Shown: positions 17,408 through 34,742, counted from the whole stretch's first letter. The stretch is DNA of 63,626 nt, filler included, from an uncultured Methanosarcinales archaeon (GCA_964398115.1; 4 parts of 4 records of this genome joined end to end with filler, not necessarily neighbours in it), one strand, 5' to 3'. Numbers and translations: made by a program. Notes: generated by a model not told the origin, from the letters alone.

Positions 17408-17507
17408 NNNNNNNNNNNNNNNNNNNNNNNNNNNNNNNNNNNNNNNNNNNNTTAATTAATTAANNNNNNNNNNNNNNNNNNNNNNNNNNNNNNNNNNNNN
17501 NNNNNNN
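17408..17507. other. Artificial contig spacer
   Basis: 100-bp N spacer with central TTAATTAATTAA (stops in all six frames) at 17452-17463. Confidence 0.97.
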
Positions 17508-17732: not shown

Positions 17733-17744
17733 CGGGATATCGGT

Positions 17745-18181
17745 TGGGTGAAAACTTTGAAATTGAAGTAAACGCCACCGTTGCAGACCCTGAATTCCAA
17801 GACTCTTCCCTAATAACTTTCAACTCCATAGAACAAAGAATGCAAGGTGAAGAAACAGAAGTCATGGTTACCTTCGCAAGAGACTTGTTGAATAAAAACG
17901 AAGAGTGTCAGGAATTAGAAGAATTATTGAATGAGGCTCAAACCGCAGCTGATAACAACAATTACGATGAAGCTAGAGAAATGCTAAATACCGTTATAAG
18001 TGGATGTCAATACCTAGTTAGTAACACTCAAATACAAAGAGAAGAACCTACCCGGTTCGAACTTGACTTCTTACAAGAATTTAACTGGTTTTACGTTGGA
18101 GCCATTACATTACTGGTAATATTTATCACTACCATTATAGTTATAGAAATGAAAATAAGAAGTGAAAGTGGAGAAAGCTAG
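17745..18181 (+). CDS. C-terminal part of a membrane-anchored protein (5' end missing)
   Basis: Low-GC open frame ending in a TM helix; no credible native start. Confidence 0.55.
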
Positions 18182-18984: not shown

Positions 18985-19064
18985 GTTGTTGAAATTACCG
19001 ATTTCAATATATAAATGTTACGAGGGGGATAAATATTTAAAGAATGAACTACCTGTTAGGTCTT

Positions 19065-20096
19065 ATGGAGGGAGTTAAAAGAGGTGAGCTTTCTCTAGAG
19101 GGAGTCGAAGTTGACGACGAACTACAGAGAGGTGTAGATTACTTTCAAGAAAAATTCGCAGAGATGCGTGAAGAAATTAACAAAGTAGTTGTTGGTCAAG
19201 AACACATTATCAACGGCATGATCGAAAGCATGCTATGCAATGGTCACATCCTCGTTGAAGGTGTGCCAGGGATTGGTAAAACATTACTCGTTAGGACCAT
19301 GGCCACTATCACGGGCGGAGACTTCTCCCGTATACAGTTCACACCAGACCTACTCCCTACTGATATTGTTGGGATAACCACTTATGAAGAAGGACGAGGT
19401 TTCTACACAATTAAAGGGCCAATATTCTCTAATTTTGTATTAGCAGATGAGATTAACCGAGCTCCTCCTAAGGTACAGTCTGCATTGCTTGAAAGCATGC
19501 AGGAGAGACAAGCAACTATTGGAAAAGAAACATTCAAACTACCCAGCCCTTTCTTCGTAATGGCCACTCAAAATCCATTGGAACAACTGGGTACTTATAA
19601 ATTGCCAGAAGCACAAGTTGATAGGTTCTTGTTTAAACTTCAAATGACGTATCCAGAATTTGATAATGAAAGGAAGATTTTGAGGAAGAACATCACGTTA
19701 GAAGATTTCGACGATTATCAGGTAACTAATGTTTTGACCCCTCAAGAGATTGTTCAAGCTCAGAAGTTTGTTAAGGACATTTATTTAGATGAAAAAATCG
19801 AGAAATATATCGTTCGTGTCACGGACGCTACGAGGAATCCTTCAAAATATGATGTGGAAAGTGGTCAATACATAGGTTTTGGAGGAAGTCCACGTTCGAG
19901 TATTGGCATGTTCATCGCTAGTAAGGCGCACGCTTTACTAAACGGTCGTCCGTACGTAACCGCTCAGGATGTTAAAGACGTGGCTCCAAGGGTTTTACGG
20001 CATAGGATAATCCTTAACTTTGAAGGTGAAGCTGAAGATATAACCACTGATGACATCGTCGAGGAGATATTGCAGAAAGTCCCTGTCGTCCAGTAA
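19065..20096 (+). CDS. moxR: MoxR family AAA+ ATPase
   Basis: EGVPGIGKT, RIQFTPDLLPTD, DEINRAPPKVQSALLE, ATQNPLE.GTY.LPEAQ.DRF. Confidence 0.95.
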   Translation: MEGVKRGELSLEGVEVDDELQRGVDYFQEKFAEMREEINKVVVGQEHIINGMIESMLCNGHILVEGVPGIGKTLLVRTMATITGGDFSRIQFTPDLLPTDIVGITTYEEGRGFYTIKGPIFSNFVLADEINRAPPKVQSALLESMQERQATIGKETFKLPSPFFVMATQNPLEQLGTYKLPEAQVDRFLFKLQMTYPEFDNERKILRKNITLEDFDDYQVTNVLTPQEIVQAQKFVKDIYLDEKIEKYIVRVTDATRNPSKYDVESGQYIGFGGSPRSSIGMFIASKAHALLNGRPYVTAQDVKDVAPRVLRHRIILNFEGEAEDITTDDIVEEILQKVPVVQ

Positions 20097-20149
20097 TTTC
20101 TTAAATTTTAAATAGTAAAGACGGGGATATAGAGAAAAAGAGGTGTGTC

Positions 20150-21052
20150 ATGCCCGTCGAAGAATTAAGAGTTGATTTAGAGCCGGAAGAACAAAGTCCG
20201 GAGATGCAGGCTAAGAAAAGAGTTCTCAGTAAAGTATTGCAGGGTAATTGGAATACTTTCATTAAGGGGGAGGGTATTGAATTTGCCGGTTTTCGAGAGT
20301 ACACTTTTGAGGATGACGCCAGCCAAATTGATTGGAAGGCTAGTTTGCGTACAGACACGACCTTAGTTAAAGAGTATGAGGAGTACAAGACTTTAAACGT
20401 TTATATCATGCTTGACGTGAGTGATACTATGCTCTTTAGTTCTAGTGAGAAGTTGAAAGCTGAACGAGCTGCTGAACTTGCTTTTTCTATGTGTGATGCT
20501 ATTCAAAAAGCTGGAGATGCAGTTGGTTTTGGAATGTTTAATAATGAATTGATAAACAACATCCCCCCGGGGGTTGGACCGGGATTGACGCCTCGTTTGA
20601 AGAAACTTTTGAAAAATCCTGAAAATTACGGAGGCCCATCTGGATTGAAAGATGTGCTTGCGTATGTTAATGAGTCAGCTCAGCAACCAGCTCTTTTCAT
20701 AGTAATGTCTGATTTTATTGATTTAGAAGAGGGCTGGGAGAGATATTTAACTATGCTTGCTCAGAAGATGGATGTTATGGGTATTATGATTCGTGATCCG
20801 AGAGATGAAACTTTTCCTATCACTGGAGGTCAATTCACGTTAGAACACCCGTCTGAGGATGAAAGTATGTTAATTGATACTAACTCTGTGAGAGAAGAGT
20901 ATGAAAAATTTGTAGAGGAAGAAGAGCAGCGGGTTAGGAATACTTTTAGTAAGAATAATGCAGGGTTAGTGCGTTTAAACACTGGTGAGGACATGTATCA
21001 ACCTTTGCTTGATTTCTTCTATAACAGGATGAGGGTGATGCAGAAGGGTTGA
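20150..21052 (+). CDS. DUF58 domain protein
   Basis: G.GIEFAGFREY...DDASQIDWKAS.R...VKEYEE, DVSDTM. Confidence 0.9.
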   Translation: MPVEELRVDLEPEEQSPEMQAKKRVLSKVLQGNWNTFIKGEGIEFAGFREYTFEDDASQIDWKASLRTDTTLVKEYEEYKTLNVYIMLDVSDTMLFSSSEKLKAERAAELAFSMCDAIQKAGDAVGFGMFNNELINNIPPGVGPGLTPRLKKLLKNPENYGGPSGLKDVLAYVNESAQQPALFIVMSDFIDLEEGWERYLTMLAQKMDVMGIMIRDPRDETFPITGGQFTLEHPSEDESMLIDTNSVREEYEKFVEEEEQRVRNTFSKNNAGLVRLNTGEDMYQPLLDFFYNRMRVMQKG

Positions 21053-21057
21053 AAAAA

Positions 21058-22026
21058 ATGGCAGAGATAAGTTTTTCCAACCCGTTGTACTTGTGGTATT
21101 TGATAGCGGTTCCTCTCTTGATAGCCAGTCATTTCTATTTCTTGCGTTACGCAAAGTTTAGGGGTATGAAATTTGCTAATTTTGAAGCTTTAAAGAGGGT
21201 TACTGGAAAGGATGTTTTTACTAAGAATTATTTAATGCTTGCGTTACGTGTTGTAATATTGACTTCTTTAATCTTAGCTGTTTCTGGAGCTACTTATTGG
21301 TATAAGGGTCAGACGAATCAGAATGACTTTGTCCTAGCTTTGGATGTGAGTGCTTCTATGACCGCGGAGGATGTTAGCCCTACCCGTATTAATCGGAGTA
21401 AGGAAGTAGTTAATCGAATCATTGATCGGATAGAGGAGCAAAATTTGGATAGTAAAGTTGGACTAATATCTTTTTCAGGTAGCGCGTATATCGAGCAGAT
21501 GCCTACAAAGGATTTCCAACAGGTACGTCGTTCTTTAAATGAAATCAGGGTTAGGCAGGAAGGAGGTACTGATATCGCTGGGGCGGTGGTAACAGCCACT
21601 AATATGCTGTTAGGTTTTAACAGAAGCAAATCAATCTTATTAATTTCAGATGGTAGCGCAACTGTTTCTCCTCAAAAAGACAGATCCATGCAGAACGCTT
21701 TAGATTTTGCTAAGCAACAAAAAGTGATAATACATACATTAGGTGTTGGAACTAATACTGGACCTGTCGGTTACCTACCTGAATATTACAACGCAACGTC
21801 TGTTTATAAGGAAGAAACACTTTTAAAACTCGCTAACTCCACTCAAGGAACGTATAATCAGATCAATACTAATGATCAATTGGAATCAGCTTTTGAACAA
21901 ATTTCAGGAGAAACTGAAGAGGCTATGATAAGTATGGATTTAAGTCATATTCTCTTATCAATTGCTTTGCTTCTCATCTTCCTAGAATGGGGATTGGTTA
22001 GTACTAAGTTCAGGAGGTTACCATAG
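21058..22026 (+). CDS. BatA-like VWA domain membrane protein
   Basis: F.NPLYLW N-terminus, MIDAS DVSASM, GGTDI, LISDG, C-terminal TM. Confidence 0.9.
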   Translation: MAEISFSNPLYLWYLIAVPLLIASHFYFLRYAKFRGMKFANFEALKRVTGKDVFTKNYLMLALRVVILTSLILAVSGATYWYKGQTNQNDFVLALDVSASMTAEDVSPTRINRSKEVVNRIIDRIEEQNLDSKVGLISFSGSAYIEQMPTKDFQQVRRSLNEIRVRQEGGTDIAGAVVTATNMLLGFNRSKSILLISDGSATVSPQKDRSMQNALDFAKQQKVIIHTLGVGTNTGPVGYLPEYYNATSVYKEETLLKLANSTQGTYNQINTNDQLESAFEQISGETEEAMISMDLSHILLSIALLLIFLEWGLVSTKFRRLP

Positions 22027-22439
22027 TGGCATGGAAAATATTATTTTCAGTTGTGTTAAGCTTCTTCATAGGTCAAACTATAAAAGCAATCCTTCACTAT
22101 CACCAGTATCATAAGGTTAACTTATGGGTTTTCTTAGAAGATGGTGGTATGCCTTCAGCACATGCAGTTGTAACTTTTTCTTTAACCTCGGCACTTTTTT
22201 ATCAAACAGGAGTTTCCCCATTGTTTGTAACAGCGTTGGTGTTCACACTGGTTATTTTGAATGATACGATGAAAGTTAGTAGAAAACCTGGCATTCAAAG
22301 TGAGCTAATGGCTAAGTTCATCGACGTCCGAGAGATTATTAGGAGGAAACTTACTGAAGGTGTAACGCATACTCCTTTACATGTTTTTTCAGGGATTATA
22401 TTAGGGTTTTTAGTTTCAAGCATGATTTATGCTTTCTAA
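22026..22439 (+). CDS. Divergent PAP2 family protein (DUF212)
   Basis: GGMPSAH and HTPLHVFSG motifs. Confidence 0.85.
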   Translation: MAWKILFSVVLSFFIGQTIKAILHYHQYHKVNLWVFLEDGGMPSAHAVVTFSLTSALFYQTGVSPLFVTALVFTLVILNDTMKVSRKPGIQSELMAKFIDVREIIRRKLTEGVTHTPLHVFSGIILGFLVSSMIYAF

Positions 22440-22500
22440 CAAATTTTTTACTTGTTAAAACAAACGTCTATAAATAAAGAAATCTTTTAACCCTGTTATA

Positions 22501-23814
22501 ATGGTTTTCGACGTAGCTATCGTGGGTGGAGGAATAACTGGTTGTTCTGCACTTTATGTTTTGAGTAAATACACGAATGTAAAAAATGTTGCACTTTTTG
22601 AAAAGCACAGTGACATCGCACAGGGGGTTTCTAACAAGCAAAATAATAGTCAGACTTTACACTTTGGAGATATAGAAACTAACTATACTGTGGAGAAAGC
22701 AGAGAAGGTTAAAGAAGCTGCTGACATGGTTGTGGAATACATCCACGATCATGAGGATGAAAACTTGTATTCTAAAGATCATAAAATGGTTTTAGCGGTT
22801 GGAGAAGAAGAAGTTGAAAGATTGAAGGAAAGATATGAAAATTTTAAGGATTTGTTTCCGAAGTTGAGAATGGTTGGTCGAGAAGGATTGTCTGAGATCG
22901 AACCGAAAGTTGTTGAAGAGCGTGATCCAGAAACTGAACTTCTTGCTTTAGTCACTGAAGATGGTTATCGTATGAATTATGGAAAGCTGGCTAAGAGTTT
23001 TGTCAATCATGGTAAAGAAGTGAATGGAAAAGAGATCGATACTTTTCTTGAGGAAAAAGTAAAGGATATTAGAAGAGAAGGAGATAAATTCGTGATAAAA
23101 TCAGGAGACGAAGAAGTTAAGGCTAGGGCAGTGCTCGTTGCAACAGGTGGTTATAGTTTAGAGTTTGCCTATAATATGGGTTATGGTAAAGAATTTATAA
23201 TTTTGCCAGTAGCGGGTAGTTTCTTCACAGCAGAATCAATGGTTAATGGCAAGGTTTACATGATGCAAGATCCTAAGTTACCTTTTGCTGCGATACATGC
23301 AGATCCTGACGTTGATAATCCTCGTGAGACTAGGTTTGGCCCTGTTTCTAAAGTTTTACCAATGCTAGAGACTGGAAAGTTGGGTTCTATAAAGGATTTC
23401 TTAGATTTGTTTGAATTTAGATGGAGCGCTTTTGCAAGTATTTTCAAAATCTTGTCTGACCAGACTTATCTTAGATACGTTGTTATGCAAGTTCTTTATA
23501 GCATTCCTTTGTTTGGGAAATGGCTTTATCTCAGAGAAGCGCGGAAGATAGTTCCAAGCATTAAATATACTGATTTGACGGTTCGTAATGACTTGGGTGG
23601 TATAAGACCTCAAGTAGTTGATACTGATAAGAGGCAGATGCAAATGGGTGAAGCCAAGATAGTTAAAGATAAAATAATTTTCGACATAACTCCAAGCCCT
23701 GGTGCTTCGGTTTGTTTAAAAAATGCGGAGAAGAACGTGAAGAAAATAATCAACGACTTAGGAAGTAATTTCAGATTTTACTATAGCCAGTTCAATAAAG
23801 ATTTCAAGGAATAA
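22501..23814 (+). CDS. mqo: Malate:quinone oxidoreductase-like FAD oxidoreductase
   Basis: GGGITG, NNSQTLH.GDIETNY, GKVY..Q.PKLPFAA.H.DPD, TRFGP, GGIRPQ, TPSPGAS. Confidence 0.8.
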   Translation: MVFDVAIVGGGITGCSALYVLSKYTNVKNVALFEKHSDIAQGVSNKQNNSQTLHFGDIETNYTVEKAEKVKEAADMVVEYIHDHEDENLYSKDHKMVLAVGEEEVERLKERYENFKDLFPKLRMVGREGLSEIEPKVVEERDPETELLALVTEDGYRMNYGKLAKSFVNHGKEVNGKEIDTFLEEKVKDIRREGDKFVIKSGDEEVKARAVLVATGGYSLEFAYNMGYGKEFIILPVAGSFFTAESMVNGKVYMMQDPKLPFAAIHADPDVDNPRETRFGPVSKVLPMLETGKLGSIKDFLDLFEFRWSAFASIFKILSDQTYLRYVVMQVLYSIPLFGKWLYLREARKIVPSIKYTDLTVRNDLGGIRPQVVDTDKRQMQMGEAKIVKDKIIFDITPSPGASVCLKNAEKNVKKIINDLGSNFRFYYSQFNKDFKE

Positions 23815-23848
23815 ATTTAAAATATCTTATAGTTTTTTGCTTCGTAGT

Positions 23849-24466
23849 ATGAACGTTAATCCAGAGCATTATAGGGTAGCTATTTTTGGTTCTTCTCGCA
23901 TAGAAAAAGAAGATGGTAGGTATGAACAAGTTTATAATTTAGCGAAGAAAGTAGCAAGTGAAGGTTTTGATGTAGTTACGGGCGGCGGTCCGAGTTTGAT
24001 GGATGCAGCGAGTCGTGGACACCATGCTGGCAGGTCTGAAGATGACGATTTACACAGTATTGGTTTAACTATTAACGTGGCTGATGAACGGGAAGGTTAT
24101 CATTTGGATATCAAGGAAGAGTTTGAAAAGTTTAGTGGTCGGCTTGACAGTTTTATGGAATTGAGTGATGTGGTAGTGGTGGCCCCGGGTGGTATTGGGA
24201 CTATGCTTGAATTGTTTTATACTTGGCAGCTTGTACAGGTGAAACAACTTTGTGAAACTCCTATAATATTGATGGGGGAGAGATGGCAGGGTTTGATTGA
24301 GTGGATAGTGAAGGAAATAGTAGAAGAAGATTTGATGGATGAAAAAGACTTAGAATACGTTTTTGTAGTTGATGATGAAGATCAAGCTTTTGAATTGATT
24401 AGGAAGGTAAAAGAAGATTATGACGCTAATGGGCATGTTTGTAAGAATTGGAATAAGTACGATTAA
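23849..24466 (+). CDS. LOG family nucleotide phosphoribohydrolase
   Basis: AIFGSSR, VTGGGPSLMDAA, PGGIGT.LELF. Confidence 0.9.
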   Translation: MNVNPEHYRVAIFGSSRIEKEDGRYEQVYNLAKKVASEGFDVVTGGGPSLMDAASRGHHAGRSEDDDLHSIGLTINVADEREGYHLDIKEEFEKFSGRLDSFMELSDVVVVAPGGIGTMLELFYTWQLVQVKQLCETPIILMGERWQGLIEWIVKEIVEEDLMDEKDLEYVFVVDDEDQAFELIRKVKEDYDANGHVCKNWNKYD

Positions 24467-24682
24467 CTATTGAAGTTCTTTTAATGATTTCTGGATTTGT
24501 GAAAATACTTTGTCTGAGTTATCTAAATTGGTATAGTTGGTTTGATTAGTTTGTTCTTGTTCAGTTGGTTGAGTTTGTTCTTGATTTTCCTCAACAGGGG
24601 TTTTCTCTTGTGGTGTTTGTTGAGATTGACAGCTAGCTAGTAAAAGCAGTGCTATCACTCCTAATATAATAGCTTTTTTCAT
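24467..24682 (-). CDS. Small lipoprotein
   Basis: LLASC lipobox, Q/T-rich. Confidence 0.6.
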   Translation of the reverse strand: MKKAIILGVIALLLLASCQSQQTPQEKTPVEENQEQTQPTEQEQTNQTNYTNLDNSDKVFSQIQKSLKELQ

Positions 24683-25284
24683 GACATCACCTGTTTATAA
24701 TTGGATTTGAAAGTTTTTACTTTACTCTGTATTTGTTGTGGACTTGCGTCCGACATGGTGTCTTGTTTTATTTCTACAATGGTCGCTATAAGTTTTGAAG
24801 CTTGCTCTGTTGAAATTTCCCCGTTTGCTTGTGCTTTTTCAATTCTTTCTTGCAAGTCGTATAGCAATAGAACTACGTAATTTCGTATAGCTTGTGGGTT
24901 TTCCCTAGCTGTTTGTGATATTGATTGTCCTATTCCAGCGTTTTGTTTAAAGCATTTGTCTTTGTTCTTTCCACGCATTTTATAACAATTTTCGCTGTTC
25001 TGGTATAAAGTTATGCATCCTTGCTTTCTTTCAATGTTTTGACAAGCTTCAGGAGTTTCAGGTTCGGGTTTTTCCTTTTCCATACGACATTTTATCCTTG
25101 CTTGGAGCCCTGTCATTTCATCACAATTTTTTGTACTTGGTTGAGTTTGTTGATTTTCTTGTTCAGTTGATTTAGTCTGTTGATTGTCTTGAGAGGTATC
25201 TTGTCCTCCAGTGCTTGAACCTGCCGCTATAACACCGATTGATATTACAAGAAGCCCTATTACTAATAGTGTCATTAGTCTCAT
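24679..25284 (-). CDS. Secreted Cys-containing hypothetical protein
   Basis: Signal peptide, Q/T linker, six Cys. Confidence 0.65.
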   Translation of the reverse strand: MRLMTLLVIGLLVISIGVIAAGSSTGGQDTSQDNQQTKSTEQENQQTQPSTKNCDEMTGLQARIKCRMEKEKPEPETPEACQNIERKQGCITLYQNSENCYKMRGKNKDKCFKQNAGIGQSISQTARENPQAIRNYVVLLLYDLQERIEKAQANGEISTEQASKLIATIVEIKQDTMSDASPQQIQSKVKTFKSNYKQVMS

Positions 25285-25548
25285 ATTTCTTATAAAAGAA
25301 TTCAATATTTAAAAAATTATTTTTCATTCAATGGTTTTTTCTATAGAAATTAGTTATTAGTTTCTTGTTCTTGCTTTAGTTATAGTAGGCATTACTTGTG
25401 CCTCGACCATGTTAATAATAGTAAGTGTGGTGAATAGGAAAGTTTACAAGAGAGTCTTGGGCTATACTTTCTGAAGCTACGGAAGAATTTGTAGAGAATG
25501 CGTTAAAGAGAAGCCCCGAGAGAAGTATGAGTTGAAATTTTAAAGCTC

Positions 25549-25977
25549 TCATTTCCAATCAGGCCTAAAGATTATCAAATTAGTATAACCATGCTTTTTC
25601 TTGTCAATAATTCCTCGGTCTTCAAGTTTGGAGAGTGTTCTTGAAACTTTCACCCTTGACATTCCTGTAAGTGATACAAGCTTTTTCTGCTCTATCTCTC
25701 CTTTATTTACAAGCACTTTCATTATTTTTCTTTCGGAGACGGGCAGCATCGCCATCAGAGATTCTACTTTTTTATCCTCTATCCTCTCTTCGAACAAGTA
25801 AGTTATAACCCCTCCAAGCACGAGTGCAGTTATGGCTATGGAGTAAAGGAAAGCTGGATAGGTAAAGTTTCCTCCAGACATGTGGGTAGAGTGATAAACC
25901 GAAAACCAGGTTATCAGAGCAGCCAGTATCAAGAAGAGGAAACCTGCAAAGATATTGAGCTTTACCTCTCTCTTCAT
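25549..25977 (-). CDS. Membrane-anchored winged-helix transcriptional regulator
   Basis: Two TM helices followed by E..I..VL..KGEIEQKKLV..TGMSRVKVSRTLSKLEDRGII.K..G.TN.I. Confidence 0.8.
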   Translation of the reverse strand: MKREVKLNIFAGFLFLILAALITWFSVYHSTHMSGGNFTYPAFLYSIAITALVLGGVITYLFEERIEDKKVESLMAMLPVSERKIMKVLVNKGEIEQKKLVSLTGMSRVKVSRTLSKLEDRGIIDKKKHGYTNLIIFRPDWK

Positions 25978-26009
25978 ATTTTTTTGAGATATTATATATG
26001 TTAATAAAT

Positions 26010-26603
26010 CTACTGACAGCCATTGTGCTTCTTCCACATCTCGGGATCGTGGCCTTCAGGTATCTCTTCACATGGGTCGCCAGAGTATCCTCGTACCTGG
26101 TTGTATCTTCGTATCTGGTGGGAGGTAAGGACCTCAGAAGTTTCCAGATGGGCTTTCAGGTGAACATATCTGAGCTTTTCGTAGATTTCTGCGCTTTTGT
26201 TGAGGAGTGCTTCCAGTTTTTCCTCATCCATATTTCCTTGGGAGAAGAAATTATCTATCTCCTTTTCGGCAGTGATCATCCGCTTGCCTGTCTGGACTGC
26301 GTCTTGGTGCATCCTCTTATATATGGAGTTTATCTTCTTTTTCTGCTCCTCGCTTAGGTTCAGTTCTTCAGAAGCGTCGAGGACATGTTTTGGTCCTGGA
26401 ATCCCATTAAGTTCTGCTGGTTTTGCCAGTCCGCGGAGAGCAGTCCCGCTCCCTTGTTGGAGCGCTTCTATATCTTCAGGAGGTATAGCTTTTATCATTC
26501 TCCCTTCCTGTCCCACGTAAGGACTCCTTATCCCCTCATCTGCTTGGCTGCTGCATCCTGCCAACACGACGAGTACCGCGATCAGTATATATTTTGATTT
26601 CAT
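26010..26603 (-). CDS. Spy/CpxP-like (heavy-metal sensor-like) lipoprotein
   Basis: LAGC lipobox, SPYVGQE.R.IKA, GLAKPAELNG.PGP.HVL, L.LSEEQ, HLKAHL..LT.HQ..YN..RGY. Confidence 0.75.
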   Translation of the reverse strand: MKSKYILIAVLVVLAGCSSQADEGIRSPYVGQEGRMIKAIPPEDIEALQQGSGTALRGLAKPAELNGIPGPKHVLDASEELNLSEEQKKKINSIYKRMHQDAVQTGKRMITAEKEIDNFFSQGNMDEEKLEALLNKSAEIYEKLRYVHLKAHLETSEVLTSHQIRRYNQVRGYSGDPCEEIPEGHDPEMWKKHNGCQ

Positions 26604-26655
26604 CGTATTGTTTCATAATATGAAATAGCCTAAGTTATTTTCTGAAATGAAAGAA

Positions 26656-26693
26656 AAGCCCCAGGAGGGATAAGAGCTGAAAGCTTAAATCTC
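26656..26693. repeat. 38-bp direct repeat, copy 1
   Basis: AAGCCCCAGGAGGGATAAGAGCTGAAAGCTTAAATCTC; 35/38 identical to 27493-27530. Confidence 0.9.
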
Positions 26694-26697
26694 AGAT

Positions 26698-27072
26698 TTA
26701 AGCGACTGCAACGTTCATCTCGCTTGGTGAAACAAAATCAGGTCGCTTCTTCTCCACATTAATATTGCTGGACTTCTCAGCATTACGAGCCTTAGAAGTA
26801 ATCAATAGCTTCATCCTGATAGATTCTTTATCTACATCAATAGTCAAATTACCTGAAAGATTATTTCTTAGATGATTTTTAGGAATATTAAATACTTTGG
26901 AAGCACTGAGGATTTCCACCCCTATAACTTCATTATCCTTATTCAAATCAAAAATCAAGTCTCCTATCTGGTGAGAAGAATCGTATTCTTTGTCCAATCG
27001 GCGAGCTGAGAAAGTATCAGTTTCGTAATCGTAATCTACTTCCGCAGGGCCCTTATCCTTTTTTTGTTTCAT
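26698..27072 (-). CDS. DUF2283 domain protein (putative antitoxin)
   Basis: VDYDYETD..., DLIFDLNKDNEVIGVEILSASK. Confidence 0.8.
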   Translation of the reverse strand: MKQKKDKGPAEVDYDYETDTFSARRLDKEYDSSHQIGDLIFDLNKDNEVIGVEILSASKVFNIPKNHLRNNLSGNLTIDVDKESIRMKLLITSKARNAEKSSNINVEKKRPDFVSPSEMNVAVA

Positions 27073-27368
27073 CTTTTCCTCCTCTCCGAGTAAGACGGAA
27101 AAACTGTTATAAGCTTTATTTTATCCTCCGACAGGATCTTGATAACCACGTTAAGGTCTTTTCTATCCGTAAAGTAAAACGTTATTTTATATAAACTTTC
27201 TTCTTCATCCTGTTCTTCAACCCCTACAACCTTATTCTCCTGAATAATCTCCAATACTTCTTCTTTATTTAATTCTCTGTTCTCACACTTATCCTTGAAA
27301 TGCTTAGATTCTTTTATGTTTTCCTCGGAAACATCCTTAACAATGTCTAAAACCTCGGTTATTTCCAT
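27069..27368 (-). CDS. DUF4258/RelE-like protein (putative toxin)
   Basis: SKHFKDKCENREL..EEV, L.VVI...IKLITVFP; overlaps the DUF2283 start (ATGA). Confidence 0.65.
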   Translation of the reverse strand: MEITEVLDIVKDVSEENIKESKHFKDKCENRELNKEEVLEIIQENKVVGVEEQDEEESLYKITFYFTDRKDLNVVIKILSEDKIKLITVFPSYSERRKR

Positions 27369-27492
27369 AGTGATTAGGAAAACAGCTCTCCATTTATATT
27401 TTGTCCCAACAGATGTCCAGTGCAAGAAACTTTAGGAATATAGGTTCAAAGCCCACATTTCCGAAACCCCTGATTTGGTCGTCAAGAAAAAT

Positions 27493-27530
27493 AAGCCCCC
27501 GGAGGGATAAGAGCTGAAAGTCTAAATCTC
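27493..27530. repeat. 38-bp direct repeat, copy 2
   Basis: AAGCCCCCGGAGGGATAAGAGCTGAAAGTCTAAATCTC. Confidence 0.9.
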
Positions 27531-27554
27531 TGTTATTAATCCCCGAGATGTTAG

Positions 27555-28700
27555 CTACATTTGTAGAAGCCCTGCAAGCAAATCCCTCATCACTTCAGAA
27601 CTACCAGCTGCAAGTGTAAAAGCCTGCGAATCCTGGTAGAGATGCGAGAGCCAATGATTTTCATTGAATGCCCCTGCTCCATGGAGGTGGGTGCAGTAGT
27701 CAATGACTTCTCTCGCAGTCTCATAAGATGTTATCTTAACCATTATTATCTCTTTGTCTATTGACTTCTCTTTCACATAATCCCTAACTGTATTATAAGC
27801 TAACTGTCTAGACGCTTCAGCTTGGGACCGCAATTCGGCTATTTTATGCCTTATTGCCTGTTTCTTGCTCAGAGAATCTCCAAAACGCTCTCTATCCCTT
27901 AAGAACTCCAGAGTTCTATCAAGGATGTATAGCGATAGAGAATTCAGAGCGACGGCACCTATTAACCTTTCCCGTTGTATCCCTTTAAGAAGATAATAAA
28001 ACCCATTTCCTGGCTTCCCTAACACCATGTCATCCTGTATAACACAGTCTTTGAAAGTTAATTTGCCCGTATCACCTGATTTAAAGCCCGAAGTAGTTAT
28101 CTTTTTCGAAGTCACACCATCCTTTCCGGTATCAACTATGACAAATCCCAAGGACCAAACATCCTTGTTAGAGCGCATTTTGGTAAGGGTTACAACGTAA
28201 TCGGCAATAGATCCGTTAGTTATGTAGTATTTATCTCCTTCAAGAATCTTCTTGCCTTTCCGTTCCCTGAGCTTAGTCTGAACGGAAGCTAAATCAGACC
28301 CACTTCCTTCTTCTGTAGCTCCAAGAGCAAGATAGTATTCTCCCTTGAGCGCAGGCTCAAGTACATTTTTCTTCTGACTTTCGCTTCCCAAAGTTTCTAT
28401 CAAAGGCGCCACCATGTTAGTGTGAGCGATGATTGAGAGAGCCCAACCCAAAGAATGACATTTAGCCAACTCTTCCGCCAAAACTACTTCGTGCCAGAAA
28501 TCTTTTCCTCTGCCACTATACTTCTTAGGAATGGATAAACCCAGAAAGCCTTTATCCGCCATTAGCTTTAGTAGATGGTCGGGAAATTCACTATTATTTT
28601 CCCACTCTAATGAATTAGGCCTAACCTTTTCAGTAACAAAATTGCTGATATCTTCTCTTAAATTCCTGTGCGATTTATTATTAAGTATTTCAGGCCGCAT
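27555..28700 (-). CDS. Acyl-CoA/acyl-ACP dehydrogenase
   Basis: GFLGLSIP..YSG, LGATEEGSGSD, GDKYYITNG, ERL, RERFG..L...QAI.H.IA, HGAG, AGSSEVM. Confidence 0.93.
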   Translation of the reverse strand: MRPEILNNKSHRNLREDISNFVTEKVRPNSLEWENNSEFPDHLLKLMADKGFLGLSIPKKYSGRGKDFWHEVVLAEELAKCHSLGWALSIIAHTNMVAPLIETLGSESQKKNVLEPALKGEYYLALGATEEGSGSDLASVQTKLRERKGKKILEGDKYYITNGSIADYVVTLTKMRSNKDVWSLGFVIVDTGKDGVTSKKITTSGFKSGDTGKLTFKDCVIQDDMVLGKPGNGFYYLLKGIQRERLIGAVALNSLSLYILDRTLEFLRDRERFGDSLSKKQAIRHKIAELRSQAEASRQLAYNTVRDYVKEKSIDKEIIMVKITSYETAREVIDYCTHLHGAGAFNENHWLSHLYQDSQAFTLAAGSSEVMRDLLAGLLQM

Positions 28701-28701
28701 T

Positions 28702-28956
28702 TCAGAAAGCCTCCAAAGACTCTCCTCTTCCAGAATCTTTGTTCTCCTTTACGTATTGTACTAAGTCACTTACGGTTTCAATATCATCCATTTCTTGTGG
28801 ATTTATAGAAGATTCATACTTGTTTCCCAGGACAGCTATAAGCTCTATGATATCCATAGAATCATTTATTATATCATCTAATTTTGTCTTCATAGAAATC
28901 TCATCTTCTCGCAAATATAATACTTCTCTCATGATTTCGATAATTTCATCTTCCAT
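28702..28956 (-). CDS. Acyl carrier protein 1
   Basis: 84 aa, acidic, DSMDIIEL phosphopantetheine site, TVSDLVQYV. Confidence 0.88.
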   Translation of the reverse strand: MEDEIIEIMREVLYLREDEISMKTKLDDIINDSMDIIELIAVLGNKYESSINPQEMDDIETVSDLVQYVKENKDSGRGESLEAF

Positions 28957-29503
28957 CTATCTCACCGAAAAACTCTTTGAAAGGCTCTCGTTGCAGTATT
29001 CTTCTGTATACTCTCTCATCAATCTCCAACAGCTTGTTCATGGTTTCCTCAACCGCCTTTCGATCATGCTTTTCTGCATGTTCGTCTAATTTCTCTTTAA
29101 CCCAACTCAAATGTCCTTCTTCATCTTCGATCATTTTTTGAAGGGTTTCCTTTACTCTTGGATGAACATCTTTCATCTTGAGATGCTTGCGGAAATGGTT
29201 CAGGGTTCTTTTTTCAAAGACCTGGGTGAGGCAAAGTATCTCGAGTGCATTCTTGGGCATACCGAATTCTTTACCATATTCCGTCTGATAAGTTTTGGTG
29301 ACTTTCTCCGGAGTTTTTCCCATGTCTTTAATGGTTTCTGTCCACATCCAAGCGTGTTCGGCCTCTTCTAAGCAGTGATGGGTCAGAGGTATCCTTATTT
29401 CATCAATATCGGTGACAAAAGCGAGCTTGCCGAAGAGGACGGATCCAGAAAGCTCACATGCTCTGTAGTAACTCAGCACATATAGTTCTTCCTCAGATAT
29501 CAA
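28946..29503 (-). CDS. Ferritin-like diiron protein 2
   Basis: E(RACE)...EEAEH...E(VFEK)...DEEGH diiron ligand pattern. Confidence 0.85.
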   Translation of the reverse strand: MISEEELYVLSYYRACELSGSVLFGKLAFVTDIDEIRIPLTHHCLEEAEHAWMWTETIKDMGKTPEKVTKTYQTEYGKEFGMPKNALEILCLTQVFEKRTLNHFRKHLKMKDVHPRVKETLQKMIEDEEGHLSWVKEKLDEHAEKHDRKAVEETMNKLLEIDERVYRRILQREPFKEFFGEIDGR

Positions 29504-30204
29504 CTTGGATCACCTCGTCTGGTTTTATAGTTGCTGAGACTCTCACCTGTTAACTCCTTTATCTTCTGGTTGAATTCTTGTATTATTTTTATATTATCAT
29601 TTTTGACCCTGGAGACAGCCGGAAGGACATAAGCCCCAACATGCTGGAAGTCCTTTGCATATTCGAGTATTTGATTCTTTATCTCAGGATTTTCCTCTAA
29701 TCTCTTCTTGAGGAGGTCAGCGGCGAATTGAGAGTGGGACACCTCTTGCTTCGATAGTTCTGAGAGGATCTTCTTCAAGACTGGCTCCGGCGCTTCCTCA
29801 GACAAATCTTGGAAAAAGTGTGCGGCAAAGTGTTCCGTCGCCATGAAATTCACCAGCTCTTCTATTTCATCACTATAATCCACATCCTTGTTCTTCTCCC
29901 TTAGTTCCCTTATTTCTTCATCCGATACCGGCTTGTATCCCACGACGTCAAGATATCTCCTGAGTACATAATAATGTGTATATGCTTCGAAAGCCTCTAT
30001 GGTGTATATGGAAGTGGCGTCAATATCATACCAGAACATATCCATCATTTTTCCAACATATACTGCGAAATACGACTCTATTAAACACGCCTCTCTTACA
30101 AGGTCAAGGACTCTTTTATCTTCTAACGCTTTCTCCTTATCAATCTCATCCCACGCAAATTTATTGTCAAAAATCTTTGCTTCTACTTTTTTGAGTTCAT
30201 CCAT
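29500..30204 (-). CDS. Ferritin-like diiron protein 1 (acyl-ACP desaturase-like)
   Basis: W-containing N-terminus, E(LIES)...EAYTH..L..YL...E(ATEH)...EPVL..I....QEVSH. Confidence 0.8.
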   Translation of the reverse strand: MDELKKVEAKIFDNKFAWDEIDKEKALEDKRVLDLVREACLIESYFAVYVGKMMDMFWYDIDATSIYTIEAFEAYTHYYVLRRYLDVVGYKPVSDEEIRELREKNKDVDYSDEIEELVNFMATEHFAAHFFQDLSEEAPEPVLKKILSELSKQEVSHSQFAADLLKKRLEENPEIKNQILEYAKDFQHVGAYVLPAVSRVKNDNIKIIQEFNQKIKELTGESLSNYKTRRGDPS

Positions 30205-30210
30205 GATATA

Positions 30211-31035
30211 TCACTTCTCCGCCACCATGATTGTCTGAAGGCCATGAGGATCTTTATAAGTAGAAGTTTTGGAAAAACCTGCTTCGTCTGCAAGCTTTCG
30301 CAGTTCGCTCTCTCCTCTATAAGAAGTCTTAAGCTCTGCCAAGTGTTTCAACAAATAGTCGGAAAATTTGTGAGATTTCATCCCTGAAGTAACCAAGCAG
30401 CCGCCTTCCTCCAGATTCTTCTTAATTACTCTGTAGAAGTCAACAACACTCTCGTCATCGAGAAACTCTGTAAATCCTGTACTTATTACCATGTCAAAGT
30501 TCTTCATATCTTCGTAGGTTCTCTCAGAAAGAGCATCTCCGTGCCAAAAGTTTAAATCATGCTGCTCTCCTCTTTCCGTCTTTATCTGCCTTAAAATATC
30601 CTTATTTAGGTCTAGAAGATGCCAGGTGACTTTGTCATAATTTGGATGACTTTCTTGCTTGAGAGTGTTAGCGGCCTCAAAGATTTCTCTTGCATAACCG
30701 CTTGGAGCCGAAAGGATATGAAACTTTCCCGAATCGTGTTCTTTGACCTGCTTCAGTATCTCTTCTTTGGCATAGATATACCTGTATCTCATAGACTGTG
30801 CGGATTTCAGGCGAAGCACCAGCCAGTCAATGACGCGACCAATACCAAATTTCCCCCTTGGTTCACCTTTGTAAACATGATCTGCAAAATCATGGCTCCC
30901 CCCATTCTTTATACCTTCTCGGGCCAAGTAACTTGTCATTAATAAATAATAAAGAGGAATCAAGTGCCACCTACCTGTTTTGAACAATTTCTTTGGTATA
31001 GACTTAGATTGTCTTGTTTGATTATGAAATGTCAT
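30211..31035 (-). CDS. Class I SAM-dependent methyltransferase (YnbC/Methyltransf_20-like)
   Basis: DHVY.GEP.G..IGR.ID, ILSAPSGYAR, LLDLN, GDAL, DMVISTGFTEFLDD. Start ATG 31035 overlaps the upstream stop. Confidence 0.8.
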   Translation of the reverse strand: MTFHNQTRQSKSIPKKLFKTGRWHLIPLYYLLMTSYLAREGIKNGGSHDFADHVYKGEPRGKFGIGRVIDWLVLRLKSAQSMRYRYIYAKEEILKQVKEHDSGKFHILSAPSGYAREIFEAANTLKQESHPNYDKVTWHLLDLNKDILRQIKTERGEQHDLNFWHGDALSERTYEDMKNFDMVISTGFTEFLDDESVVDFYRVIKKNLEEGGCLVTSGMKSHKFSDYLLKHLAELKTSYRGESELRKLADEAGFSKTSTYKDPHGLQTIMVAEK

Positions 31036-31837
31036 TTTGAAAACCTCTCTGGCCAATTGTCTTTTTTATTCCCCCAACATAGCAGACTGCTTGCCACGAG
31101 TCTTTCTATACCGAAAGCCACGCACATCGAAGATGCATACTCATCAGGATTCTTGAATATATTAAAATTTTTTGCAAAATGGTCCTTGTGGAGATTTATT
31201 GACATTAAGGGAAGAGACTCATCTCCGATTTTTATAACATATTCCTTTNNNNNNNNNNTTCCTTTTTGAGTTCCTTAATTTTTTGCATTATACGCGCTCC
31301 TCTACTTTCTCCCATAGCAAAAGAATCAGTTGCTGCTTCGAAATCACCCTGCAAATCAAGTTTTTCAAAGATATCTTTAATTAGAACCTTAACTTCTTTC
31401 TCTTTATCCTCTATAAATTCTTCTGTTCCTAAAAAAACGAATTCCAACATATGGAAGTTTGAAAGTCTGAAGGGGAAACTCCATTCTCCACCCTCTCTCC
31501 TACCGCACTCTGAGAATACACAGATACATATATTTTCGATCTGTTCGTTCATGAAATCCAGGTATGTGTGAAGGCAAGATGCTGGCGTCAATGATCTATC
31601 CTCACCAACAGATATTAGTTGATGAGGAAAGTGCTTGCTATAATTGGATTTTTCCAGTATTTCCTCATCTATAATGTCTGGTGCTTCAATGTATTTGTGG
31701 AAATAAGGAGAGAACTTTTCTTTCAGAAAAGATATGTAACCGTTGAAAATCTCTTCGGCCCGTCCGTTAAGCGAAATCTTTCCATTATCTAACTGTTCGA
31801 ATCCTGCTTTTTCCAACTCGGGATATTCTTTATTCAT
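31032..31837 (-). CDS. Amino acid:[carrier protein] ligase (class II aaRS/atypical SerRS catalytic-domain homologue)
   Basis: Y..HFPH, LTPASCLH, R.E..FRL..F.MLEFV.LG, ATDSF. Past the 10-N gap: KEY...MSINLHKDHF...MCVAFGIER...W....WP*. No tRNA-binding domain. Confidence 0.88.
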
Positions 31838-32067
31838 TTGAAAAACTCCTCAATTATTGAGTTAACATCTTGGAAGTTCTTCATCACTATCTCCTCATCG
31901 TTTAACTCTCTCCCAATTTCATTTTCAACATAGCCTATGAGATCAAGGATGTTCATAGAATCCAAGAGTTTGCTCTCAAATAAGGGTGTGTCCTCCGTGA
32001 CTTCCACATCTGGATCTTGTATCACCTTTCCATTGATAAAGTTGATTAGATTTTCTTTTTCAGACAT
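31834..32067 (-). CDS. Carrier protein 2 (aminoacyl/DltC-like)
   Basis: DTPLFES.LLDSMNILDLI..VE..., NFQDVNSI. Confidence 0.9.
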   Translation of the reverse strand: MSEKENLINFINGKVIQDPDVEVTEDTPLFESKLLDSMNILDLIGYVENEIGRELNDEEIVMKNFQDVNSIIEEFFK

Positions 32068-33191
32068 CCTTCTTCCCCCATCCCGTTTCCAGACAGTATC
32101 TTACGACTTTTCCATAATACTCATCTACGGGCGGAATAATGTCTTGGTATTCAGGCAATACTTGAATCAAGTTTGTTTGATCAAATTCCTTAGGATAATT
32201 CAGTTGGTGGGCAAAGTGTTTGAGAGCCGTTAGAGCACCTTTTAGTAGAGGGTTGTTCGCTTGTTCAACCGATTCTATGAACATATCAAAGGTTTCGGGT
32301 GTGGTAATCTTGGGTTTTGGATAGTCTTTTTTCTTCCAGGAGGAATCGCATTTAGCAAGATAATGATAGCTTTTGTCGATAACTTCTTTCAGGTTGTAGG
32401 ATTTTTCCTTCCCTGATACTATGTGGAAAACTTGTTGAGATTCAAATTTTTCTAAGAATAGTTTTGCTATTACTTGGGCCGTTATATCGCTGGGTATCAT
32501 GTCTACAGAGTAGTGAGGTTTTCCGGGAAGCATAGATGCAAGTCCGAGATAAATCATACGGAGAGCAGTATGGGGAGCGGTGAAGTTATTTACTTCACCT
32601 GTTTCGCTATTTCCAAGAACGGTTGAGAGTCNNNNNNNNNNAGAGATTGGAAGTTCTTCCCAGTGTTGTTCAATCAAATTTTCTGCTTCATACTTTGATT
32701 TCTCATATGAATTGACGAAGCCTTCATCATGAGATCTTTCGCTCTCTTTTATCAAACCCGTCCTCTTACCACTGACATAGACCGTGCTCAAGAAACCTAA
32801 TTTTCTCAGATTTTCACAGTCGTGTGCCAAGTTTATTACATTCCTCGTTCCCTTCACATTAGTTTTTCTTATTTCATCAATAGGGAGATCAAACTTGGTA
32901 ATAGCTGCAGCATGAATTATACCATTTGCTCGTTGTTTTATGGTATCGTAGCTTTTTTTCTTGAGACCGAGATTTTCTTCCCTAATATCTCCTGCGAACA
33001 ATGATATTCTGTGGCTGTAGTCTTTTACTTCCAAAATTTCGTTAAGGATTTCTTCTTTCTCTTTACTCTTTCCTGTTTCGTGCAGTAGAAGTTGAAGCTT
33101 GCAGTTTGATTGACTTAGAAGTGAAGNNNNNNNNNNCCAAGTCTTTTCCTATCATTCCTGTACTTCCAGTTATAAAGATGGTTTCTTCCAT
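32060..33191 (-). CDS. Extended SDR, thioester reductase / fatty-acyl reductase-like
   Basis: True start MEETIFITGSTGMIG at 33191 (across a 10-N gap); GDI...LGL, IIHAAA, NV.GT, ST.YVSG, NSYEKSKYEAE. Confidence 0.88.
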
Positions 33192-33192
33192 T

Positions 33193-34133
33193 TTAATGCT
33201 CCAATATCATACATGACCATGTGGCTCCAAAACCAAAAGTGAAGAGCAACAACAAATCCCCTTTCTTCAATACCCCTTCTTTTTTCATATCATGTATATT
33301 GACTATGTGGTCGCATGAAACAGTGTGTCCTTTCTCTTTTACGTTGTTCAGCCAGATTTTTTCTCTGGGTATCTCCGTCATGCTTGAAAGTATTTCCCAG
33401 CTTCTCTTGCTGATATTGTGAGGAACTACCCAGTCTATGTCCTCGATAGTAATTTCTGCTTGCTGCAATGTTTCCTCAATCGCTTTTGAAGCCATAGGGA
33501 AGTATGAAGCCAGGAGTTCTTGCTCTCTCTTTGGAGTGTCCCAATAGTAGGAGTGAGTTATTTGGTTGTAGTGAATTATTTTGTTCTCGGAGCTGTTTTT
33601 TTGTAGTAGGAAGCCACAGGCAGCATCGCTCATGATGTTATACATAATTTCTCTCTTTTCACCTGGTGGAAGCTTATCTCCTGCCAGAATTAAAATATTC
33701 TCTTTGTTTGAGGATTCTAGATAGTGTCGAGCCAGATCAATTGTAGAGAGCAGCCCGCTACATCCTTGTTCTGCAGTTGTCAATGCATTAGCATTTTTCA
33801 ATTCGAGCTCTTGATGCAGGTGTTGTGCCTCATATCTAAAACAGGAAAGCCTTTCCGAATTATTTATGGAGTTTATTCCTGTCCCTGTGTAAAGAAGCAA
33901 CATATCTATATTTTCCTTCCTTTTACCGCTTTTTGAGATAGTCTTCTTACCAATTTCGACTATTAGTTCATGAAAATCTTTCCAGTCTTGCTCGACAAAG
34001 CATTGTTTGAAACCAAAGCCCTCAAGAGTGTCTGGATCAGAGTCTAGAAGGCCTCTCTTTTCTAACTTATTTAGGGATAGTTTGAGTCTTGGAAAGNNNN
34101 NNNNNNCAAACCTATCGATCTTTGGTCTTTCAT
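33193..34133 (-). CDS. FabH/KAS III-like condensing enzyme (Cys-His-His)
   Basis: Own start MKDQRSIGL at 34133 after an AAGGGG SD; QGCSG, MSDAAC..LL, VVPHNIS, GHTVSCD, GD..LLFTFGFGATWS. Confidence 0.88.
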
Positions 34134-34642
34134 TTGAAATCCCCTTTGGACATACTATCGCGCCCACGAAATTATTCTGGCGGAAGGAATAACCGATCCA
34201 TTCTTCGTGTGTTTGGTTGTCCTCTGTTTTAACGTGTATATGGTATCTGTTTTTATATTTTGATTGTATCTGGACTTGTTTAGGAGGTATTTTAAGCCCT
34301 TTTCCTGTCGCTTTGAGAGCTGCTTCTTTCAGTGTCCATAAAAAGGTAATAAGAAGGTCCTCATCCAAACTATCTTTGAATAGATTAATCTCCTCTTCAC
34401 CGGCTACGTATTTCAGTAATTCTTCTCTATGAGGTCTTATCTTCTCTATATCCACACCTATTGCTTCTGAGGACATCCCTGCCAAGCCCAAACCGTGAGA
34501 ATGGGATATAGAACATTGTATGTTATCCTTCCCCTCTATTATGGGCACTCCGTTTTCTTTGTTAGTAACGGTTATTGACCTATAGCCGGTTTTTACTCCT
34601 CCGGACGTCAGATAAGCTTTCTTGAGAGCTATCCTACCAGAA
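34107..34642 (-). CDS. Sfp-type 4'-phosphopantetheinyl transferase (5'-truncated; 3' end in a gap)
   Basis: GRIALKKA...NG.P, SISHS, IGVDIE, WTLKEAALKATGKGL. Confidence 0.9.
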
Positions 34643-34742
34643 NNNNNNNNNNNNNNNNNNNNNNNNNNNNNNNNNNNNNNNNNNNNTTAATTAATTAANN
34701 NNNNNNNNNNNNNNNNNNNNNNNNNNNNNNNNNNNNNNNNNN
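34643..34742. other. Artificial contig spacer
   Basis: N spacer with TTAATTAATTAA. Confidence 0.97.

Follow-up and report, generated by a model that had tools for sequence, protein, structure and literature searches.

Amino acid:[carrier protein] ligases charge a carrier protein with glycine, alanine or serine, and reviews describe their biological role as unknown (PMC9437257, from 2022, and PMC5370406). The closest described examples, Bll0957 and Atu2573 and the rhizobial cluster of carrier-protein, acyl-CoA dehydrogenase (ACAD), ligase and DUF1839 genes, share with the locus described here a class II core like that of seryl-tRNA synthetase (SerRS) without tRNA-binding domain, an adjacent carrier and, in some copies, an ACAD. 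This locus lies in a DNA stretch of 63,626 nucleotides, filler included (the window), from a genome deposited as an uncultured Methanosarcinales archaeon (GCA_964398115.1, here G000; 1.0 Mb, completeness 91%, contamination 0.64%). The window joins four contigs, and the cluster is the terminal part of contig C18 (window 17508-34642). Ten tightly packed minus-strand genes at 27555-34642 encode, in order, a 4'-phosphopantetheinyl transferase (PPTase), a ketoacyl synthase (KS) of the KAS III type, a reductase, a carrier protein (CP2), a ligase homologue, a methyltransferase, two ferritin-like proteins (F1 and F2), an acyl carrier protein (ACP1) and an ACAD (Table 1). Eight of the nine gene junctions fall between -11 and +6 bases; the exception, a PPTase/KS overlap of ~70 bases, spans a scaffold gap. 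A preliminary description of the window had given these co-oriented, abutting or overlapping genes in the same order, which gene calls and Pfam and NCBIfam labels bear out. We interpret them as the last ten genes of a horizontally spread cassette with a putative core of 12 (PlsC-like protein, small membrane protein, START/SRPBCC protein, PPTase, KS, reductase, CP2, ligase, methyltransferase, F1, F2 and ACP1) and an optional ACAD. We propose, with a probability of about 0.5, that the cassette is a tRNA-independent line, free of nonribosomal peptide synthetases (NRPSs), that turns a carrier-bound small amino acid and a scavenged fatty chain into an aminolipid.

The cassette adds to the rhizobial arrangement a KS III, a reductase, a methyltransferase, two diiron enzymes, a second carrier, a PPTase and a PlsC-family protein, and no DUF1839 gene was seen in it. 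In working it resembles columbamide- or ornithine-lipid-type lines, whereas the parts differ. Columbamides derive from fatty acids and are tied to dimetal halogenases; the col cluster of Moorena combines similar functions, namely an ACP, a pair of ferritin-like diiron enzymes, loading of an amino acid, a methylation, release by reduction and a last acylation step. Unlike col, complete cassette loci have no fatty acyl-AMP ligase, polyketide synthase or NRPS modules, the loader is an aminoacyl-tRNA synthetase homologue, the joiner is a free KS III, and CylC motifs are absent. OlsB and OlsA also N-acylate an amino acid and then O-acylate it with a PlsC-family enzyme, whereas the cassette has no OlsB-type GNAT, and its amino acid would be carrier-bound and its product released by reduction. 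The cassette is a member of neither line, nor of the rhizobial ligase cluster or the FabH, CylC or acyl-ACP reductase/aldehyde-deformylating oxygenase (AAR/ADO) systems. No published description of the gene set was found in the full-text literature, a body of text that leaves subscription papers largely outside and supplements, possibly including genome surveys, aside; this agrees with the earlier remark that the set was not recognised as a described pathway.

The preliminary description had proposed looking for the same gene set in other genomes. With F1 as query, genome contigs yielded six loci and metagenome contigs 13; after one was dropped (L024, on the same contig as L006) and the copy in the same-genus genome G001 was added (L011), 19 other loci were compared, of which L005 and L021 are near-identical. 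Gene order is preserved in 19/19 for the genes that each locus holds. Named hosts are Pacearchaeota, Nanoarchaeota, two Paceibacterota, Rhodothermales and Eisenbacteria, some contigs being unlabelled, and protein matches further include Minisyncoccota, Berkelbacteria and Buchananbacteria. Seven loci extend upstream of the KS gene. Six (L001, L003, L011, L015, L018 and L065) encode there a PlsC-family acyltransferase, a membrane protein (134-175 aa; no Pfam family in 4/5 scanned), an SRPBCC protein and the PPTase; in the seventh (L004, Rhodothermales) an MMPL transporter occurs instead. An adenylating enzyme was found in none of the seven. The supposition that loading enzymes may have been lost at the contig end is therefore not supported: the six upstream-complete copies carry the PlsC, membrane and SRPBCC proteins instead, and among five host genomes (G000, G001, G416, G417 and G420; incomplete genomes) an AMP-binding (PF00501) match occurs in G001 alone, as an Aas-like fusion on another contig, and was not found in the other four. 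Nor does the ACAD appear to be a core tailoring enzyme, as had been assumed, because it directly follows ACP1 in only 3 of the 15 loci whose sequence continues for at least 290 bases past it (L011, L012 and L018); it was also not found in G416, G417 and G420, which have no local copy.

Between two archaeal copies (L001 and L015), dN/dS is 0.05-0.23 for 12/12 genes; the cassette is under purifying selection. The F1 profile matched 0/400 other genomes of the same phylum, 0/400 genomes in the phylum of the candidate phyla radiation (CPR) host and 0/150 in that of the Eisenbacteria host, and among 40 relatives a full match occurs in G001 alone, two others being weak and partial. In a six-gene tree, the archaeal copies and three unlabelled contigs are separated from bacterial-type copies (support 98), and in the F1 tree a Berkelbacteria protein adjoins the Nanoarchaeota copy (98). 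On sequence grounds we thus regard the cassette as rare, functional and horizontally moved. Rooted with nine distant proteins, the F1 tree has bacteria outside the CPR branching first and nests the archaeal copies among those of CPR, on unstarred branches (82-94), which hints at a bacterial origin without establishing it. A tyrosine integrase gene lies 0.7 kb upstream of the Pacearchaeota cassette (L001:2411-3301); the L015 cassette, which neighbours PolD and a membrane-protein gene of similar kind, has no visible integrase. Both in the window (19044-22026, 10 kb off) and in a Nanoarchaeota copy (L006:3338-4974, 2 kb off), DUF58 and VWA genes are oriented towards the 3' end of the cassette, and the two copies may share a region of insertion.

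That the cluster resides in an archaeon and is not a chimera is very probable, because it has an N-free join to a Woesearchaeota-like moxR, a whole cassette is present in G001, and Pacearchaeota and Nanoarchaeota copies lie beside archaeal genes; the earlier assignment to an archaeal contig is thereby strengthened. The N-free stretch 17508-31248 carries moxR, DUF58, VWA and mqo, already placed on this contig in the preliminary description, together with ACAD, ACP1, F2, F1, the methyltransferase and the ligase C-terminus. The ten named organisms among the 120 best MoxR matches listed are all archaeal (seven Woesearchaeota, two Nanoarchaeota and one 'archaeon'), and G000 encodes PolD DP1 and DP2. 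The complete cassette of G001 is sister to that of G000 in the six-gene tree (support 100). The Pacearchaeota copy, on a 221-kb contig (G416:C1), adjoins PolD; the archaeal copy L015 adjoins PolD and Cdc6; and in a Nanoarchaeota genome (L006 and L065) the cassette adjoins PvlArgDC and an archaeal helicase. The share of aspartate plus glutamate in seven cluster proteins (0.169) is close to that of the host proteome (0.161), with 0.187 in the G001 copy and 0.125-0.134 in five other copies. A chimeric scaffold or bacterial contaminant, which we consider highly improbable, would account for the four scaffold gaps of ten N each within the cluster (31249, 32632, 33127 and 34097; unmentioned in the preliminary description), for a tetranucleotide distance at the 94th percentile among 206 genome windows and for a Logan contig depth in run X1 that is lower over the cluster than over its left flank, such depth being no copy number; it would not account for the N-free join, the sister copy, the archaeal neighbours of other copies or the host-like acidic residue share. 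Two overlapping Logan pieces (27483-27746 and 26942-27551) tie the ACAD end to the flank. The Logan pieces are short and contain no joints, and none of the 16 listed out of 74 crosses a scaffold gap; run X3 yielded no piece, and all runs belong to a single study, possibly of the source sample.

The window ligase matches NF005479 with both halves (E 4e-7 and 3.5e-13; 29 and 49 bits, cut-off 357) and by these scores is a distant homologue, not an equivalog. It also matches NF002120, and its class II core is homologous to the methanogenic-type SerRS; the L001 ligase matches Bll0957 at E 1.9e-15 and type-2 SerRS at E 1.4e-5. The Cys/Glu/Cys columns (PAxC, MxE, C), which we take to be Zn ligands, and FGxER align with Bll0957 and a Rhizobium ligase, and the L003 ligase has Q for E in motif 3. 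Whole copies are 248-273 aa and have no tRNA-binding domain, and a separate housekeeping SerRS (TIGR00414 over cut-off) is encoded in 5/5 hosts. The CP2 gene overlaps the start of the ligase gene. Carriers adjacent to ligases in Priestia and S. clavuligerus score higher with the CP2 profile than with the ACP1 profile (31 versus 16 and 27 versus 12 bits), an Aas-type ACP domain scores 23 with ACP1 versus 8 with CP2, and CP2 weakly matches ACP_for_OlsHI (E 2e-5). CP2 is thus the probable aminoacyl carrier, and the preliminary view of an NRPS-independent, two-carrier logic, with CP2 as aminoacyl and ACP1 as acyl carrier, is supported, although two of the four ligase-side carriers were uninformative.

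The premise that archaea generally lack ACP and PPTase systems is weaker in the host phylum, where PF01648 PPTases occur in 33/401 genomes, G000 included (32/400 others; the count takes in four unpublished genomes, G264, G377, G265 and G341, which enter no other result). An Aas-like gene adjoins 8 of 20 PPTase loci from published genomes (L040-L063). AcpS-type PPTases, in ~8% of genomes of this archaeal phylum, may mark a wider fatty-acid scavenging module in DPANN, and an earlier report records ACP-pathway genes in DPANN (PMC10936187). G001 encodes an 812-aa Aas-like fusion of AMP-binding, ACP and PlsC domains (L031:160-2598, G001:C55) that was not found in G000. Plasmid searches for cultured carriers returned 109 records for the ligase, 67 for the KS and one, weak, for a distant F1 relative; five of these regions were inspected, from B. 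mycoides, C. felsineum, S. clavuligerus, R. acidisoli and P. koreensis, and all hold different clusters. The B. mycoides region (L034, plasmid NZ_CP031072.1, 255916-280803) is a different orphan cluster in which a homologue of these ligases is accompanied by an ACAD, three carriers and a trio of KS III proteins that each have GHxxxxD, so that this KS type recurs beside a ligase. On a Clostridium felsineum plasmid (L035:7743-11491), a ligase homologue has a citrate-lyase-family gene on one side and carrier-priming genes of CitG/CitX type on the other.

The KS Cys, two His and Asp are invariant in 7/7 aligned copies; the position of the FabH Asn is His in 7/7, with the Asp five residues further on (C112, H257 and D262 in the window KS piece), and the KS scores 74 bits against a FabH (TIGR00747) cut-off of 292. 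The acyltransferase ChlB3 has the triad C113-H296-D301 and Phe266 at the first His, where DpsC has His266 (PMC9573744). ChlB3/CerJ and DpsC thus share with the cassette KS a thiolase fold, a Cys nucleophile, a His at the FabH Asn position and an Asp five residues on, whereas relative to ChlB3 the KS keeps the first His, matches with its C-terminal part alone (E 3.6e-7) and scores higher against ordinary FabH structures. Because the His/Asp spacing equals that of the ChlB3 triad, the KS is probably an acyl (amide) transferase, in line with the preliminary view that it joins the two carriers. Decarboxylative C-C joining, in which the KS would condense acyl-ACP1 with an aminomalonyl- or aminoacyl-derived extender to give a sphingoid-like base, is decidedly unlikely in our view. 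The KS Cys and two His are as in DpsC, and ACADs convert seryl carriers to aminomalonyl carriers in other pathways, but the ACAD is missing at 12/15 loci and was not found in three such host genomes. Moreover, the cassette has no pyridoxal-phosphate enzyme, and neither FabD (0/5) nor carboxyltransferase (0/5) was found in the host genomes, which disfavours malonyl chemistry and tells against a sphingoid-type C-C product, the second option of the preliminary description.

Reductive release by a short-chain dehydrogenase/reductase (SDR), also suggested at first, is supported by the reductase, which has PF07993 at E 1.4e-39 (136 bits, cut-off 20), TIGR01746 at E 1e-28 (101 bits, below the cut-off of 213) and the motifs TGSTGMIG (TGxTGxxG) and YEKSK (YxxxK). 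The C-terminal Glu of the ACAD is kept in 4/4 copies. In the Eisenbacteria copy, two Hydrolase_4-like (lysophospholipase-type) genes, one of them scanned, directly follow ACP1 (L005:3595-5443); their pairing with Methyltransf_20 presumably parallels E. coli YnbC.

F1 has the site residues E43, E70, E73-A74-x-x-H77, E124, E154-x-x-H157 and H188. A74, which aligns with the DesA2 ligand E107, is Ala in 94/94 members, and E70, E73 and H188 are invariant in 94/94; the site thereby departs from the standard desaturase criterion (two ExxH, 2-His/4-carboxylate) at the first ExxH Glu. E70 lies a helical turn ahead of A74 and might substitute as ligand. Acyl-ACP desaturases from castor and mycobacteria (DesA2) nevertheless give the best fold and profile matches of F1, and an ACP gene is nearby. 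The F1 model aligns with castor desaturase at Z 16.8 (rmsd 3.6 over 221 aligned residues; the matches behind it have 15.5 and 15.0), although helical bundles generally score high, and the DesA2 profile match has E 2.5e-10, whereas identity to soluble acyl-ACP desaturases is 11-21% and PF03405 has no match at E 0.01 among the 94 members. The family is small, with 32 representatives at E 1e-30 among 1.84 billion.

The F2 ligand set E17, E47xxH50, E97 and E128xxH131 (2-His/4-Glu) is complete in at least 89/90 members. Its model matches 3ez0 (Z 18.6), ADO 5ux2 (Z 17.6) and 4mud (Z 16.9), the ADO within 1 of its neighbours. A recent duplication of F1 and F2 was considered and rejected, because the profile of one fails to match that of the other (probability 0.9%). 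On the contig that carries L001 (Pacearchaeota, G416:C1), two tandem sets of GNAT-like, F2-like ferritin and PlsC-like genes (L064:7826-12332; 98.6% probability of the ferritin to the F2 profile) sit in a glycosyltransferase/sulfotransferase/ABC (surface-glycan) locus.

These diiron proteins bear on two other products. If the reductase yields an aldehyde from which F2 removes formate, as in cyanobacterial AAR/ADO, the result would be a hydrocarbon, or an N-acyl amine or enamide, one carbon shorter. AAR/ADO shares with the cassette a thioester-reducing enzyme, here within the operon, an ADO-shaped diiron protein and an ACP; ADO 5ux1 tops the F2 Foldseek list (E 8e-4, TM 0.74), and Atlas features of F1 include aldehyde decarbonylases (0.91-0.92). 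We still hold deformylation to be rather unlikely, because F2 is 15-16% identical to ADO, an unannotated ferritin-like protein (3ez0) scores as high, PF11266 matches neither F1 nor F2, and relatives of F2 are also seen beside GNAT and PlsC where no reductase is present; the cassette reductase, moreover, is of the NAD_binding_4 type rather than an AAR, and the cassette has eight more genes. Alternatively, F1 and F2 might N-oxygenate or halogenate a carrier-bound amine or chain, like AurF, VlmB or CylC, giving a small secreted columbamide- or azoxy-like compound for cell-cell interaction. F2 matches PF11583 AurF at E 1.8e-5, VlmB is at rank 20 (E 0.03) among the F1 fold matches, and the functional parts parallel columbamide assembly. 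CylC-type dimetal halogenases carry QExxH and HxxDExxH, and an open site there is proposed for chloride (PMC12101540), to which the Glu-to-Ala change of F1 would correspond; yet both motifs are absent from the F1 and F2 family consensus, the invariant E70 could occupy the site, and the PlsC and SRPBCC proteins indicate membrane lipids, so that we regard such a metabolite as unlikely.

An aminolipid is favoured because PlsC and SRPBCC occur in 6/7 upstream-reaching loci and MMPL in the seventh, because Hydrolase_4 genes lie behind ACP1 in L005 and F1 is nearest to acyl-ACP desaturases, and because a surface-glycan locus repeatedly holds relatives of F2 flanked by GNAT and PlsC genes. From protein families, motifs, gene order, selection and the lack of malonyl genes we infer the reactions, their order, the amino acid, the acyl source and the product as follows. 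The PPTase would prime both carriers using CoA from a host, and the ligase would adenylate a small amino acid (glycine, alanine or serine, by precedent) and load it on CP2. ACP1 would receive a scavenged fatty chain, either from acyl-CoA via the KS or from a lipid via a PlsC-like transacylase. F1 and F2 may desaturate or hydroxylate this chain, and the ACAD, where present, may introduce an alpha,beta double bond. The KS would then move the chain via its Cys to the amine of aminoacyl-CP2 without decarboxylation, forming an amide, and the reductase would free an N-acyl amino aldehyde or alcohol. The methyltransferase is predicted to methylate N or O, the PlsC-like enzyme may attach a second chain, and the SRPBCC and membrane proteins (MMPL in the Rhodothermales copy) may carry the product to the membrane or surface.

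The upstream genes also suit a different destination, in which the carriers donate modified aminoacyl or acyl groups to a macromolecule (a surface glycan, a lipoprotein or a host lipid) in a Dlt-like manner, with PlsC and the membrane protein as final transferases. CP2 resembles DltC, PlsC and the membrane protein belong to the core, F2 relatives occur within a glycosyltransferase locus, and an Lnb_N gene follows ACP1 in L002; against this, a dedicated thioester reductase implies a small released product and the cassette has no MBOAT or glycosyltransferase, and we judge the prospect to be poor.

Several observations weigh against the aminolipid line. The acyl source is a guess, and G000 has no PlsC or SRPBCC gene detectable with L001/L003 queries or PF01553, in a genome that is 91% complete and whose contig is cut there. 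The B. mycoides ligase-side carrier ties between the CP2 and ACP1 profiles (12 versus 12 bits), and that of Rhizobium scores poorly with both. The first His (PHN) of the KS is kept, as in DpsC and unlike ChlB3, so that a condensing role stays possible, and F2 is closer to deformylases than to desaturases. In the host genomes CoaBC was found in 0/5, electron transfer flavoprotein in 0/5 and a 2Fe-2S ferredoxin in 1/5, which leaves the cofactor supply, the diiron electron donor and the ACAD acceptor unexplained. Nor is the O2 supply accounted for, since the enzymes need O2 while many such hosts inhabit low-oxygen places.

GGGP synthase was likewise found in 0/5 host genomes, and no route by which G000 could make membrane lipids of its own was detected. 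With CoaBC, FabD and carboxyltransferase not found in the hosts, both CoA and the acyl chain would have to be acquired externally, in agreement with the published view that CPR and DPANN cells take up the lipids of others and perhaps modify them (PMC7242380). We tentatively suggest, as a possibility well short of even odds, that host-dependent archaea and CPR bacteria without de novo lipid synthesis convert chains of host lipids, passed by a PlsC transacylase to ACP1, into a glycerol-free, amide-linked membrane or surface lipid.

Table 1 Features of the cluster, in window coordinates.
Feature	Position	Strand	Evidence
PPTase, Sfp/HetI-like 4'-phosphopantetheinyl transferase	34067..34642	-	PF01648 E 2.5e-17; L001 match starts residue 40
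KAS III-fold enzyme (KS)	33193..34133	-	PF08541 (E 3e-21)/PF08545; Cys QGCSG, His PHN, His + Asp GHTVSxD
Extended SDR, thioester reductase (R-domain/fatty acyl reductase type)	32060..33191	-	PF07993, TIGR01746; contains two scaffold gaps
CP2, DltC/AsbD-type carrier protein	31834..32067	-	Ser37 in DSM; best NCBIfam matches AsbD, ACP_for_OlsHI, DltC
Amino acid:[carrier protein] ligase homologue	31032..31837	-	NF005479 both halves; frame interrupted by gap 31249-31258 alone
S-adenosylmethionine-dependent methyltransferase, Methyltransf_20	30211..31035	-	PF12147 E 2.2e-12; profile matches class I methyltransferase structures
F1, ferritin-like, acyl-ACP desaturase/R2lox shape	29500..30204	-	Model pLDDT 97; atypical site
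F2, ferritin-like, canonical diiron set	28946..29503	-	Model pLDDT 93.9; nearest shapes are 3ez0 and aldehyde-deformylating oxygenases
ACP1, fatty-acyl-type acyl carrier protein	28702..28956	-	Ser33 in DSM; PRK00982 E 5e-13, TIGR00517 E 4e-10
ACAD, acyl-CoA/ACP dehydrogenase	27555..28700	-	PF00441/02771/02770; accessory gene
Terminator-like hairpin with T tail behind ACAD (weak)	27494..27515	-	1 found versus 0.5 +/- 0.7 expected in shuffles

The end of C18 truncates the PPTase ~40 residues after its start; its C-terminus spans the gap 34097-34106, with the stop codon beyond the gap. Scaffold gaps break the ligase and the reductase N-terminus each into two frames and make the PPTase and KS appear fused, whereas in whole relatives PPTase and KS are two genes and ligase and reductase are continuous. 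A genuine PPTase-KS fusion was rejected because the 451-aa open reading frame that suggests it is created by the 10-N filler; a ligase frameshift was rejected as well, the gap flanks having seven bases in common and whole copies being continuous. Immediately downstream of the cluster lies a DUF4258 and DUF2283 gene pair (26698-27368), which we assume to be toxin-antitoxin-like. Contig linkers occupy 17408-17507, 34643-34742, 50812-50911 and 63572-63626, and the end of contig C25 and the start of C49 have 55 identical bases in common.

Genes are known to pass between Nanobdellota and Patescibacteria, as a recent preprint documents (bioRxiv 10.64898/2026.05.13.725050), and the cassette adds a whole-operon case to this exchange. 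The cassette also places an amino acid:[carrier protein] ligase, of a family whose role is described as unknown (PMC9437257), in a full line with a predicted joiner and release enzyme, which is testable with a dozen small soluble proteins. The invariant Glu-to-Ala site of F1 is of enzymological interest in itself. For the hosts, the cassette is a candidate pathway for lipid modification by DPANN and CPR, kept under purifying selection in genomes of 0.8-1.6 Mb in which FabD, carboxyltransferase, CoaBC and GGGP synthase were not detected. If chains of host lipids are indeed converted, the product would be a fatty-acyl lipid of archaeal make, F1 would represent a diiron enzyme class not described before, its metal site being either shifted or open, and the cassette would be the first complete pathway around an amino acid:[carrier protein] ligase.

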